Assembly: GCA_036834365.1 (NCBI GenBank)
Contig: DAITOA010000014.1
Location: forward strand, 6,825-70,824
Direction of reading: 5' to 3'
Length of the DNA stretch: 64,000 nt
From: Thermodesulfobacteriota bacterium
GTDB taxonomy: Bacteria; Desulfobacterota; Desulfomonilia; UBA1062
Made by a program: the position numbers and the translations under genes. The notes below the pieces were generated by a model. That model had not been told where the DNA came from. It saw only the letters and a program-made list of their open reading frames with translations, and did not search any database. Shown here one piece after another: positions 23,620 to 26,583 of the stretch (positions are counted from its first letter, which is position 1; the number at the start of each line of letters is the position of its first letter).

Positions 23620-26583
23620 ATGAACAAGATAAATGCAGCAAACATAGCCACCAATCTTGTCCTGCGCATCATGGCACTGCACTTTAACCTGTTTGACAAG
23701 TTCAGAAAATATCTCAGGTCTGCAGATGGCTGGATCAACTTCACCGTGGGGCTCAGCACCGAAACCGGCAGCGTCAGGCAGGCCATCACCTTTTCCGAAG
23801 GGAGAGCCCGGGTGCCCCGGAGGATTCCAGAAAGGGTGGACATTGAACTCGTCTTCATGGACAACGATGTCCTGGCAGAAATGACCAAATTGCCCCCCAA
23901 CGAAGTCCTCAATCTGATATTGAAGAACAAGCTCACCATAAAGGGAAGCCTCGTCTATGCACAGATTTTCAACTTCTTCATCTCGCTGCTCATGAGGGGC
24001 AAGCAGATCAATATGATGAAGAAACAGGTCAAAGACCACATGAAGGAACTGTGCTCGACCATGCCGGAGCCGAATGAAAAAAGGCCGCCTGCCGGAAAGG
24101 CAAACATGAAGGCCGACATGGTAGATCCCGGGGTGCGATTCATCACCGATGACCCCTATCTTTCCGGATTCTCCCTTGATGATTTTCCCAGGTTGAAGAG
24201 GTTTCTTGATATCCATCTCAATGAGAAGCCCTCCATCTGCCACGAACGACCTTTGTTGCTGACCGAGTGGTTCAGAAAAAACGGTTTTGAGACGGACAGC
24301 TCAGGTAACCCATGGGTTCCGGAGTTGAGGCAGGCCAATGCGTTCAAACACCTCATGGAAAACCGTAAGCCCATCATCCGCAAGAATGACCTCATCGCCG
24401 GTACCACCACCACCAAGGAGATCGGGGTTGTGATCTATCCCGATTCGCATGGAACCATGATATGGGGGGAGCTTCTGACGGTTCCGTACCGGCATCTGTT
24501 CCCCTATGACATAACAGAAGAGACCATATCCACTCTGCACCATGAAGTGTTTCCCTTCTGGACTGACAGAAACTTCAGAGAATGGGTGCGGAACACCTAC
24601 AAGAATCCGTTATGCCAGCAGCTCGATGAAAGATTTGCCGTCTACTTCCTCTGGAAAACTGTGGCGCTTTCCCACACGGTGATCGATTATCCGAAGCTCC
24701 TTCGGATCGGCGCCCGGGGAATCATACAGGAGCTCGAGGAAGAGCTTCTCCGTAATGAGGGGGCGGACCAGTTGAAGAAAGACACCATCCAGTCCATTAT
24801 CCTCTGCTATGAAGGGCTCATTGCCTACGCCCGGAATCTGTCCGCCCAGGCTCGGTATGAGGCAGCGCGTGAACCGGATCCAGCGAGAAAGACTGAGCTT
24901 GAGAGGCTCTCCGAGATCTGCTCCAAGGTCCCCGAACAGGGGTGTGATACCTTGGACGAAGCAGTCAACGCCATCTGGATCCACTGGGTGGGTGTCCACA
25001 TGGAGAACACCAATGCAGGGTTCTCACTGGGCCGGATGGATCAGTGGCTGCAGCCCTTCTTCATTTCCGACCTGAAGAAGATCAGATCCAAGGCCAAGAA
25101 AGAAGCATACATCAAGCATGCCATAGAGCTTATAGGCTGCTTTTACCTGAGGTGCACCGACCACCTCCCCCTCATCCCGGACATCGGAAACTACCTCTTC
25201 GGGGGAAGTTCCTCGGATCAGGCCGTCACCCTGGGTGGCATCACACCTGAAGGGGAGGATGCGGTCAACGACATGACCTACATCTTCCTCAAGGTCACCG
25301 AGATGCTGGGGATACGTGATCCGAACGTCAATGCCCGGTACAATAGGGAAATGAATTCGGCCACCTACCTCAGGAGACTCTGCGAGGTCAACCTGAATAC
25401 CACGGCAACCCCATCCATCCACAATGATGAGGTTGTGATGGGTTCGCTTCGTGAGTTCGACTATCCCCCTGAACATCTCAGGGACTGGGCGGCCACCGGG
25501 TGCGTCGAACCCACGCTCTCCGGCCGGCACCTCGGGCATACCAACTGCATGATGTTCAATATGGTGGCTGCACTGGAGATGTCCATGTTCAACGGCCACC
25601 ATCCCCTCATGCGATGGAACGTGGGGCCGAAGACCGGAGACCCAGCTGACGGGTGCTTCAAGACCTTCGATGACTTTTTCGAGGCCTTCTGCAGACAGCT
25701 CGACTTCCTCGTCGACAACGTATGTGAGTATAACAGGATGCTTGGTGAGGCACACAGTGTCATCAGACCGACACCCTTCATCTCGGGCCTGATCGAAGGC
25801 CCCAGGGCAAAGGGCCGTGACGTCACCAAGGGCGGCGCGCTCTATAATTCTTCAGGCACGGCTTGCATCGGTCTGGCGGATATAACCGACTCCCTCCTCG
25901 TGATCAAGAAATTGGTCTTCGAAGAGAAAAAAACAACCCTTGCAGAGATCAAGAAGGCTGTGGAGACGAATTTTATCGACAATCCAGTTCTGCACTCAAT
26001 GGTGCTCAAGAAGGTCCCTCTCTTCGGTTCAGGCAATGAAGAAGCCGTGGACATGGCAAACCGGATCACGAAGTATATCCATGACAGATTCGGCGAGAAG
26101 GTGAACTACAGGGGAGGCCAGTATACGACGGGTTTCTGGTCCATGTCCAACCATGTCGCCTTCGGGACACTGACGGGTGCGCTTCCTTCGGGAAGACTCG
26201 CCTACAAACCCTTCACACCCGGACTTACACCCGAGGCACATGCTTCGAGGAATCTACTCGACAATATCCGCGATGTGGCTCAGCTGGTGCCCGAACACAT
26301 GAACAACAACATCGCGTTCAACGTCAAGGTCGTACCCTCAGCCAAGGACGGTCATGATACGACTGTCGACCACATCTTCGCATATGCCAAGACCTACTGC
26401 GACCTGGGCGGCATGCAGATGCAGTTCAATGTCGTCTCGTCCGACACCCTTCGTGATGCCATGCGCCACCCGGAGGAATACAGAAATCTCATGGTACGGA
26501 TATCCGGATATAATGCATACTTCGTGACCTTGAACAGGGATATGCAGCTTGAGCTCATCGAGCGGGCAGAATACGGTCTCTAG
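23620..26583 (+). CDS. Glycyl radical enzyme (PFL2/dehydratase-type) with N-terminal SCP2-like domain; function unknown
   Basis: Gly loop MVRISGYNAYF (Gly963, nt 26506), Cys loop TGCVEP (Cys628, nt 25501), SLGRMDQ; about 130-aa N-terminal extension matching the SCP2 pattern. Confidence 0.9.
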   Translation: MNKINAANIATNLVLRIMALHFNLFDKFRKYLRSADGWINFTVGLSTETGSVRQAITFSEGRARVPRRIPERVDIELVFMDNDVLAEMTKLPPNEVLNLILKNKLTIKGSLVYAQIFNFFISLLMRGKQINMMKKQVKDHMKELCSTMPEPNEKRPPAGKANMKADMVDPGVRFITDDPYLSGFSLDDFPRLKRFLDIHLNEKPSICHERPLLLTEWFRKNGFETDSSGNPWVPELRQANAFKHLMENRKPIIRKNDLIAGTTTTKEIGVVIYPDSHGTMIWGELLTVPYRHLFPYDITEETISTLHHEVFPFWTDRNFREWVRNTYKNPLCQQLDERFAVYFLWKTVALSHTVIDYPKLLRIGARGIIQELEEELLRNEGADQLKKDTIQSIILCYEGLIAYARNLSAQARYEAAREPDPARKTELERLSEICSKVPEQGCDTLDEAVNAIWIHWVGVHMENTNAGFSLGRMDQWLQPFFISDLKKIRSKAKKEAYIKHAIELIGCFYLRCTDHLPLIPDIGNYLFGGSSSDQAVTLGGITPEGEDAVNDMTYIFLKVTEMLGIRDPNVNARYNREMNSATYLRRLCEVNLNTTATPSIHNDEVVMGSLREFDYPPEHLRDWAATGCVEPTLSGRHLGHTNCMMFNMVAALEMSMFNGHHPLMRWNVGPKTGDPADGCFKTFDDFFEAFCRQLDFLVDNVCEYNRMLGEAHSVIRPTPFISGLIEGPRAKGRDVTKGGALYNSSGTACIGLADITDSLLVIKKLVFEEKKTTLAEIKKAVETNFIDNPVLHSMVLKKVPLFGSGNEEAVDMANRITKYIHDRFGEKVNYRGGQYTTGFWSMSNHVAFGTLTGALPSGRLAYKPFTPGLTPEAHASRNLLDNIRDVAQLVPEHMNNNIAFNVKVVPSAKDGHDTTVDHIFAYAKTYCDLGGMQMQFNVVSSDTLRDAMRHPEEYRNLMVRISGYNAYFVTLNRDMQLELIERAEYGL

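Follow-up and report, generated by a model that had tools for sequence, protein, structure and literature searches.

A predicted SCP2-fused glycyl radical enzyme of an uncharacterised PFL2-type lineage in Desulfomonilia

The stretch of DNA analysed here, referred to as the window, comprises 64,000 nucleotides of contig DAITOA010000014.1 (assembly GCA_036834365.1) from a Thermodesulfobacteriota bacterium of the Desulfomonilia, and it carries a gene for a glycyl radical enzyme (GRE) of 987 amino acids (aa). Judged by its sequence, this protein is outside every characterised GRE class and belongs to a distinct, widely distributed lineage of SCP2-fused PFL2-type enzymes that has not been described in the literature. 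With modest confidence, it is predicted to be a GRE of the Cys-X-Glu (CXE) type that cleaves the polar head of a lipid-like substrate to a carbonyl compound.

The gene and its catalytic residues

An earlier note on this DNA had placed five active-site strings between positions 24658 and 26170. All five are present and bracketed by that range, and they lie in one frame of a single open reading frame (ORF; Table 1), whose ATG is preceded, 7 nt upstream, by the Shine-Dalgarno sequence GGAGG (23608-23612). The gene is real and its motifs are not chance occurrences, since Pfam recognises both the PFL-like barrel (529 bits) and the Gly_radical domain (aa 865-969; 82.7 bits), and more than 120 database clusters are homologous over the full length at 64-80% identity. 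Both hallmarks of the GRE superfamily are found, namely a radical domain with an RVxG[FWY]-type motif and a PFL-like barrel with a Cys loop. Cys628 aligns with Cys433 of glycerol dehydratase (GD), Cys438 of propanediol dehydratase (PD) and Cys435 of HpyG, and the sequence G-C628-V-E630-P contains the Cys-X-Glu motif by which GRE 1,2-eliminases and isomerases are defined (PMC13450708). The claim that the catalytic Cys-X-Glu pair is kept is borne out by the alignment, in which Cys628 and Glu630 are accompanied by His352 and Gly963.

Distance from the characterised classes

The comparison set consisted of GD, PD, CutC, HypD, HpyG, IslA, HpsG, PflD, YbiW, 9rco and Archaeoglobus fulgidus PFL2. The chains of GD, PD, PFL2, 9rco, HpyG, HpsG and, in part, CutC were rebuilt from HMMER alignments, with lengths and residue numbers checked, and the PflD and YbiW sequences were taken from the E. 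coli K-12 record. HypD and IslA were represented by locus-encoded enzymes, the former passing the HypD equivalog cut-off and the latter matching 7kq3 at 1480 bits. The catalytic core of the window enzyme is 25-31% identical to that of every known class, and its best solved relatives are GD (1r8w, 374 bits), PFL2 as the second-best PDB match (2f3o, 369 bits), PD (5i2a, 362 bits), 9rco (352 bits) and HpyG (8id1, 342 bits).

Among the NCBIfam models, only the broad subfamily model TIGR01774 was matched, at 475 bits and below its cut-off of 678, and all equivalog scores amount to about one third of the respective cut-offs. HypD-, IslA- and PflD-type enzymes from the fetched loci score 505-596 bits on one another's equivalog models; the window enzyme, at 339-396 bits, is therefore further from these classes than they are from one another. 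In a phylogenetic tree (IQ-TREE, LG+G4, 42 rows, 792 columns), the SCP2-bearing enzymes and two shorter relatives form a clade with a support of 100/100. This clade lies outside a group (support 90/91) that unites HypD, YbiW, PD, GD, 9rco, PflD, HpyG, CutC, HpsG and IslA, and the PFL2 branch, unresolved near the base of the tree, is not one of its members.

Assignment to individual classes was rejected on both scores and residues. As a CutC, the protein reaches 389 bits on equivalog TIGR04394 against a cut-off of 1050, has a His instead of the Asp in the column of GD His164, and, where an aromatic cage would call for Phe, has Asp533. As a HypD, it reaches 396 bits against 1100 (NF043068), and the columns of Asp278, Asp339 and Phe340 hold A466, S532 and D533. 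For IslA, IseG, HpsG and HpfG (C-S lyase and HpfG models NF048011 and NF048009), scores of 389 bits on the HpsG-type equivalog and 343 bits on the HpfG equivalog, each against a cut-off of 1000, are accompanied by His352 in the column of Gln193 and by a segment E without R-Y-V-P. A PflD/YbiW isomerase is opposed by 339 bits against 1109 (NF007437), an identity of 25.5-26.9% and different pocket residues, and a GD or PD by the retention of only His164 from the diol-binding set, the rest being A-G, D, N and W. Furthermore, a pyruvate formate-lyase is excluded by a single Cys (GCVE) with no Cys-Cys pair and by 102 bits on TIGR01255 against 994. An X-succinate synthase was rejected on scores of 183-191 bits to TutD and MasD and on the lack of conserved small-subunit genes at the 25 family loci that were sampled with long flanks; a second context sample comprised 80 species loci with 2.5-kb flanks only.

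The superfamily review counts GD, PD, HpfG, HypD, HpyG, HpzG, CutC, IseG/IslA, HpsG, HplG, YbiW and PflD among the CXE enzymes (PMC13450708). A fusion to a lipid carrier is absent from this review of June 2026 (PMC13450708), and targeted full-text literature searches returned no characterisation of the family and no GRE linked to SCP2, ether lipids or the cleavage of polyethylene glycol or other ethers.

Active-site pocket

The GD motifs given in the earlier note (NGHSIS, GGYP, GWHDS and a Tyr) are correct and align where they were supposed to. In the HMMER alignment with 1r8w, GD N279-G280-H281-S282-I283-S284 pairs with T464-N465-A466-G467-F468-S469. The GD stretch G334-G335-Y336-P337, with M338 and Y339, pairs with G528-G529-S530-S531, S532 and D533; G444-W445-H446-D447-S448 pairs with G639-H640-T641-N642-C643, and Y640 with W840. 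GD Cys433, Glu435 and His164 correspond to Cys628, Glu630 and His352. Accordingly, A466-G467 replace H281-S282 of GD (the column of HypD Asp278), S530, S532 and D533 replace Y336, M338 and Y339, H640-T641-N642 replace W445-H446-D447, and W840 replaces Y640. Asp533 stands in the column of PD F344 and HypD F340, and M842 in that of PD V696 and HypD T645.

Work by O'Brien in 2004 reportedly assigned roles in diol binding to H281, S282, Y339, D447 and Y640 of GD, and we take Phe344 and Val696 of PD and Asp216 and Thr502 of CutC to be pocket residues as well. Residue numbers for PD, CutC and IslA were taken from the numbered chains of the alignment or from an offset to the catalytic Cys (CutC Cys489, IslA Cys468). 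The choice of pocket columns is validated by the published contact residues of GD (His164, Cys433 and Glu435; PMC13450708) and HypD (His160, Asp278, Asp339, Phe340 and Thr645; PMC7077986), which fall into them. In IslA, Gln193 and Val680, which likewise fall into pocket columns, have been named essential (PMC13450708).

The full residue set of the window enzyme (Table 2) was found in none of the 11 compared classes. Column 352 is His in GD (164), PD (166), HypD (160), PflD and YbiW, Asp in CutC, and Gln in IslA and HpsG. The most unusual single feature is Asp533, in a column that is Tyr, Phe or Trp in every characterised class but PflD, where it is Gly. The suspicion that these segments match no characterised eliminase, which a proper alignment might have overturned by revealing the residue set of a known class, thus withstood that alignment. 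Because the pocket set is shared with none of the 11 classes and no equivalog score comes near its cut-off, the proposal of a new substrate is a reasonable one, and the enzyme very likely acts on a new substrate class.

As a proxy for pocket size and polarity, side-chain volumes and Kyte-Doolittle (KD) values were summed over 13 aligned pocket columns. The volume obtained is nearest to those of PflD and YbiW, binders of C6 sugar phosphates, which makes a pocket roomier than that of GD plausible. With columns rich in polar residues (Asn, three Ser, Asp, His, Thr and Asn), the pocket is also the most polar of all those compared except that of PFL2 (KD sum -21.3). The earlier expectation of a roomier and less polar pocket therefore stands in its first half, on a crude volume proxy only (1593 against 1947 A^3 for GD), and fails in its second (KD sum -20.3 against -13.5).

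Table 1. Positions of the GRE gene, its domains and motifs, and neighbouring genes in the window
Feature	Position	Strand	Basis or remark
GRE ORF P0001, 987 aa	23620..26583	+	ORF call, Pfam
Predicted SCP2-fold (lipid-carrier) domain, aa 5-150, long helix at end	23632..24069	+	AF2 model, Foldseek
PFL-like ten-stranded barrel domain, aa 198-849	24211..26166	+	Pfam PF02901, 529.5 bits
Segment A, ALSHTVIDY, aa 349-357	24664..24690	+	Alignment; His352 at 24673-24675
Segment B, ENTNAGFSLGRMDQ, aa 462-475	25003..25044	+	Alignment
Segment C, FGGSSSDQAVTLGG, aa 527-540	25198..25239	+	Alignment; Asp533 at 25216-25218
Segment D, Cys loop, GCVEPTLSGRHLGHTNC, aa 627-643	25498..25548	+	Alignment; Cys628 at 25501-25503, Glu630 at 25507-25509
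Segment E, GFWSMSNHVAFG, aa 838-849	26131..26166	+	Alignment
Glycyl radical motif RISGYNAYF	26497..26523	+	Pfam, alignment; Gly963 at 26506-26508
TetR-family regulator directly upstream of the GRE	22911..23603	+	Partner in 19/25 and 56/80 loci
Tungsten-type aldehyde:ferredoxin oxidoreductase, divergent from the GRE	20682..22643	-	Context analysis
Poly-[4Fe-4S] ferredoxin beside the oxidoreductase	20240..20662	-	Context analysis
Junction of GRE stop (26583) and convergent thioredoxin-2 gene (26589-27038)	26584..27038	-	Stops 5 nt apart; no activase
AMP-forming acyl-CoA ligase	27517..29157	+	Possible downstream step

Table 2. Pocket residues and pocket proxies of the window enzyme and of characterised classes; class rows follow the pocket columns of the window enzyme without columns 531 and 845
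Enzyme	Pocket columns	Volume (A^3)	KD sum
Window enzyme	H352 / N465 A466 G467 / S530 S531 S532 D533 / C628 E630 / H640 T641 N642 / W840 M842 N844 H845	1593	-20.3
GD	H / G-H-S / Y-M-Y / W-H-D / Y, S, I	1947	-13.5
PD		1920	-5.2
HypD	H / P-D-A / Y-D-F / Y-I-L / L, T, C	1878	+4.1
CutC	D / Q-T-G / Y-P-F / W-T-S / L, I, N	1808	-5.8
IslA	Q / T-T-T / Y-H-W / T-S-G / V, F, S		
PflD	H / A-S-S / F-T-G / L-H-D / Y, V, A	1639	+0.5
YbiW	H / G-H-S / S-L-Y / C-T-G / S, I, A	1534	+1.0

The N-terminal domain

According to structural modelling, an SCP2 lipid-carrier fold is fused to the N-terminus of the GRE, in a region (aa 1-190) for which no Pfam match above threshold was found. The AlphaFold2 (AF2) model of aa 5-150, built from 22 family sequences, has a predicted local distance difference test (pLDDT) score of 82.9 and is followed by a low-confidence linker up to about aa 190. 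A Foldseek search of the PDB returned SCP2 proteins or domains almost throughout ranks 1-42, with TM values of 0.54-0.71. They include UbiJ-SCP2 as the best match (E 5e-6), A. fulgidus AF1534, yeast and human SCP2, and the SCP2 domain of the SdsA1/Pisa1 alkylsulfatases. In addition, sub-threshold matches spanning the whole Pfam SCP2 profile were obtained for 5 of 10 family N-domains, the window enzyme scoring 13 bits and one relative 20.8 bits against a threshold of 21.3. A profile of the N-domain gave 395 matches among 1.84 billion representatives, mostly N-terminal gene fragments; among the 150 matches listed, there are about nine full-length GREs of 984-1041 aa and some proteins of 150-170 aa.

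Distribution and conservation of the family

A search of species-representative genomes located the family in 379 stretches or more, which cover many bacterial phyla and one Asgard archaeon. Carriers are found among Desulfomonilia, Syntrophales/Smithella, Desulfobacterales, Spirochaetota/Leptospirales, Actinomycetota, Chloroflexota, Myxococcota and Bacillota, and include metagenome-assembled genomes (MAGs) from digester, peat, sediment and rumen or gut. Six pocket motif patterns are kept in 76-80 of the 80 species-representative loci, the copies being 61-81% identical. One Bacillota clade copy is without the His. The Desulfoluna clade (52% identity), which includes the cultured D. limicola ASN36, has another pocket set (SHAE, NHAG), and its enzymes probably take a related but different substrate. 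The Asgard copy, from a Promethearchaeia MAG (43% identity; L034:2947-5913), keeps SSSD, GHTN and WS..H.

Several further observations concern the spread of the family. Copies with 61-63% identity in rumen and gut MAGs of Mogibacterium, Lachnospiraceae, Anaerovoracaceae, Acutalibacteraceae and Clostridiales (L168, L170-L174, L176, L177) indicate that it is not confined to sediments and digesters. The Promethearchaeia SCP2-GRE has its own activase and an aldehyde:ferredoxin oxidoreductase (AOR) gene downstream, and this combination with near-identical pocket motifs points to transfer of the cassette between domains. At one Spirochaetota locus (L155:2501-7925), a second SCP2-GRE, 50% identical to the window enzyme, lies directly downstream of the first, and no activase was found within the flank of this two-copy locus. 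Elsewhere (L037:953-5947), two GRE paralogues without SCP2 stand in tandem, the second of which retains neither the catalytic Cys (GAVK) nor a glycyl radical motif; owing to these losses, it is likely a non-catalytic pseudo-GRE partner.

Genomic context

Over the 25 loci, the conserved set consists of the GRE (25), a radical-SAM GRE-type activase with ferredoxin-like clusters (24) and a TetR-family regulator (19). The PDB relatives of the TetR protein, screened for hints of a ligand, gave weak and uninformative matches only.

In the window, the GRE gene is divergent from a tungsten-type AOR gene with a ferredoxin gene beside it. An AOR gene adjoins the cassette in 17 of the 80 species loci, including two from Bacillota, and also in one Asgard locus; its pairing with the ferredoxin is seen in the window, in its relatives (Desulfomonilia/Syntrophales) and in one Asgard locus. 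Loci of Smithella, Desulfosudaceae and others carry an extended short-chain dehydrogenase/reductase (SDR; NAD_binding_4 or 3beta-HSD type) together with a classical SDR, the extended type occurring in 20 of the 80 species loci. Further neighbours of the GRE are an aldehyde dehydrogenase in one Bacillota locus, a Zn-dependent alcohol dehydrogenase in Desulfoluna, and GFO/MocA and GMC oxidoreductases in spirochaetes. These carbonyl-handling neighbours represent five or more unrelated types, distributed over different lineages. Counting all types, a carbonyl-handling enzyme lies within 2.5 kb in 42 of 80 loci. The recurrence of unrelated aldehyde and ketone enzymes is the best indirect evidence of a carbonyl product, as CXE chemistry predicts. 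By comparison, the link to the acyl-CoA ligase is weak, as such a gene stands beside the cassette in only 5 of 25 and 6 of 80 loci.

Other observations on the surroundings of the gene can be added. Upstream of the AOR/GRE cassette, a run of aspC-fliS-fliT-maf-glpK-mlaE (17957-20243) is syntenic with a relative (L004), which places the cassette in a stable chromosomal context with no obvious island. Radical-SAM genes with a B12-binding domain occur near the GRE in a Chloroflexi locus (L005:12498-14201) and an Actinomycetota locus (L006:6262-7641), where UbiA and lycopene-cyclase-like genes are also found, which may be a coincidence. At 49897-51831 of the window, 23 kb from the GRE, there is a radical-SAM ORF of 644 aa with a CxxxCxxC motif. 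From about 48000 to the end at 64000, the G+C fraction is 0.60-0.64 throughout, up from about 0.50-0.57, and the ORF translations in this part are rich in Arg and Pro; a different origin or ORF calling misled by high G+C is possible.

Proposed reaction and alternatives

In the proposed mechanism, a radical-SAM activase would install the glycyl radical on Gly963, from which it would be relayed to Cys628, and the SCP2 domain would hand over an amphiphilic, lipid-like substrate. The thiyl radical of Cys628 would then attack the polar head of the substrate and take a hydrogen atom from one of its carbinol carbons, and deprotonation of that hydroxyl by Glu630 would give a ketyl radical. The neighbouring substituent would leave, protonated with the help of His352; most likely it is O-linked (OH or OR), as His352 is common to GD, PD, HypD, PflD and YbiW and is not found in CutC or in IslA/HpsG. 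Return of the hydrogen atom from Cys628 would yield an aldehyde or ketone. This product may be oxidised here by the divergent tungsten AOR with its ferredoxin and reduced by SDRs in other lineages, and the nearby acyl-CoA ligase and a dehydrogenase could act next, although that link is weak. The TetR regulator would hold the cassette off until an inducer appears. The activase gene has gone from the locus in this clade, and activation would be provided by a gene elsewhere.

Several points weigh against this scheme. The pocket statements rest on an alignment at 25-31% identity, because the barrel core of the full-length AF2 model (31-sequence family alignment; pLDDT 67.5 overall) is unreliable, and it is the five pocket segments whose values fall below 50. 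A His in column 352 does not by itself mark a C-O cleaving enzyme, since the dehydratase HpyG has Glu there and non-eliminase outgroup GREs have His, and the invariant Asp533 could equally bind an ammonium group, as might be expected of a C-N lyase. Membrane docking or protein contacts are other possible roles of the SCP2 domain. No carbonyl-handling enzyme lies within 2.5 kb in 38 of 80 loci, and carbonyl oxidoreductases are common genes. Finally, no GRE-activase-like CxxxCxxC protein was found in the 64-kb window, and no activase stands beside the gene in the nearest relatives, Desulfomonilia MAGs that are 79-81% identical (L098-L101).

Among the alternatives, a C-N lyase (or a C-S or C-P lyase) is unlikely. 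Such an enzyme would remove an amine or ammonia beside a hydroxyl in a lipid head, for instance of the sphingoid-base or ethanolamine type, with Asp533 holding the cation, as Asp216 of CutC presumably does. The acidic residue is invariant (Glu in the Desulfoluna clade) in an otherwise mostly aromatic column, the polar pocket offers several hydrogen-bond donors and acceptors, and this reaction, too, would end in an aldehyde or ketone, in keeping with the AOR and SDR neighbours. Yet column 352 holds the His of the C-O cleavers and not the Asp of CutC or the Gln of IslA/HpsG, and conserved genes for handling ammonia or amines are missing from the neighbourhood at the 25 loci. For C-S cleavage, the sulfonate anchors of IslA, IseG and HpsG (two Arg and a Gln; PMC13450708) are absent.

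An isomerase of the YbiW, PflD or HplG kind is quite improbable. Its target would be a bulky polar head, such as the sugar or anhydro-sugar of a glycolipid, in which ring opening or the breaking of an internal C-O bond would give a keto isomer in place of two fragments. The pocket volume, close to those of PflD and YbiW, the shared His352 and CXE motif and the very polar pocket are in line with this reading. The low identity to these enzymes, a position in the tree outside their group and a PflD equivalog score far below the cut-off argue the other way, as does the gene context: E. coli pflD and ybiW lie among phosphotransferase system (PTS) and aldolase genes, and conserved sugar kinase, PTS or aldolase neighbours are lacking at the 25 loci.

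It is very doubtful that deletion of the activase has reduced the gene to a silent or decaying remnant in this organism. The case for it is the contrast between the absences described above and the rest of the family, where the activase is adjacent to the GRE in 24 of 25 and 63-68 of 80 loci. In relatives with 74-75% identity, an activase and an Exo_endo_phos gene lie between the GRE and the thioredoxin-2 gene, and in the syntenic 'Syntrophaceae UBA1062' (75% identity) the two occupy the junction position (L004:10978-12940). However, the ORF is intact, in the same activase-less arrangement, in each of the 17 contigs, from many samples, that code for an identical protein; as the nearest species relatives share the absence, the loss is old and clade-wide. 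Five activase-less GREs from five species keep every catalytic and pocket residue, and the ratio of nonsynonymous to synonymous substitution (dN/dS) among them is 0.05-0.18, with synonymous sites saturated between the window and its relatives, which together indicate long-term purifying selection after the activase was lost. GRE activases can be encoded elsewhere in the genome, as in E. coli, where TdcE uses PflA. Given the retained residues and the purifying selection, the enzyme is probably in use and activated in trans by a gene elsewhere.

Lastly, hydrocarbon activation in the manner of X-succinate synthases, with SCP2 carrying an alkane, is scarcely credible: the high rank of A. fulgidus PFL2, for which this function was once proposed and is still debated (GD versus (1-methylalkyl)succinate synthase, MASS; PMC13450708), the frequency of the family in Smithella and Syntrophales and the suitability of an SCP2 domain for a hydrocarbon are outweighed by MasD/TutD scores far below the 330-374 bits to eliminases, the lack of a small-subunit gene family among the clustered neighbours, the strongly polar pocket and the presence of the family in rumen and gut Bacillota and in spirochaetes.

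Implications

A deep and very widespread GRE lineage has here kept the radical and acid-base machinery and added to it a predicted lipid-carrier domain and an invariant, polar and probably enlarged pocket. To our knowledge, the known glycyl radical eliminases act only on small soluble substrates (glycerol, propanediol, choline, hydroxyproline, sulfonates and sugar phosphates). Identification of the substrate would add a reaction class to GRE chemistry, and the family may reveal how anaerobes attack a lipid-like compound whose known breakdown routes all depend on O2. For annotation, the residue set H352, N465-A466-G467, S530-D533, H640-N642 and W840 can serve as a signature of the family.

A more specific and rather improbable version is a radical C-O lyase or dehydratase whose substrates would be ether lipids, for instance 1-O-alkylglycerols or archaeol, attacked at their glycerol or other polyol head. 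If true, this would be the first case of a GRE that acts on membrane-type lipids themselves in anoxic settings. Hydrogen abstraction at the free carbinol and loss of the vicinal OH or O-alkyl group would give a 3-alkoxypropanal or a fatty or isoprenoid alcohol, and the product would be oxidised by the tungsten AOR and passed on to the acyl-CoA ligase and beta-oxidation. Such an enzyme would do without oxygen what alkylglycerol monooxygenase does with it and could explain the turnover of ether lipids in methanogenic digesters, peat, sediments and the rumen, the habitats of the family.

Comparison with known systems

The best sequence matches, GD of C. butyricum (1r8w/1r9d) and PD of R. inulinivorans (5i2a), share with the window enzyme the barrel, the Gly and Cys loops, the Cys-Val-Glu-Pro sequence and the His at column 352 (His164 and His166, respectively). 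They differ by an identity of only 30-31%, by the lack of the additional N-terminal SCP2 domain and linker of about 190 aa, and by their place in a tree group to which the window enzyme does not belong. A. fulgidus PFL2 (2f3o) resembles it in the I-S-H of segment A, the NQAVT-GG of segment C and the M-T/S of segment E, as well as in its very polar pocket and its position outside the characterised group; at 30% identity, however, it is without an SCP2 domain and has another Cys-loop tail (IAPFGNSFTSSD).

The E. coli 1,5-anhydro-hexitol-6-phosphate isomerases YbiW and PflD have in common with the window enzyme the CXE motif, the His and a low pocket side-chain volume, the last of which implies a substrate larger than C3. 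In contrast, they are 25-27% identical, have other pocket residues and a sugar-PTS gene context, and are without SCP2. Finally, the SdsA1/Pisa1 alkylsulfatases and UbiJ provide examples of an SCP2 module joined to, or cooperating with, a catalytic unit for substrates with a hydrophobic tail. Their catalytic domains and chemistry are unrelated to those of GREs, and the SCP2 domain is C-terminal in the alkylsulfatases, whereas that of the window enzyme is N-terminal.

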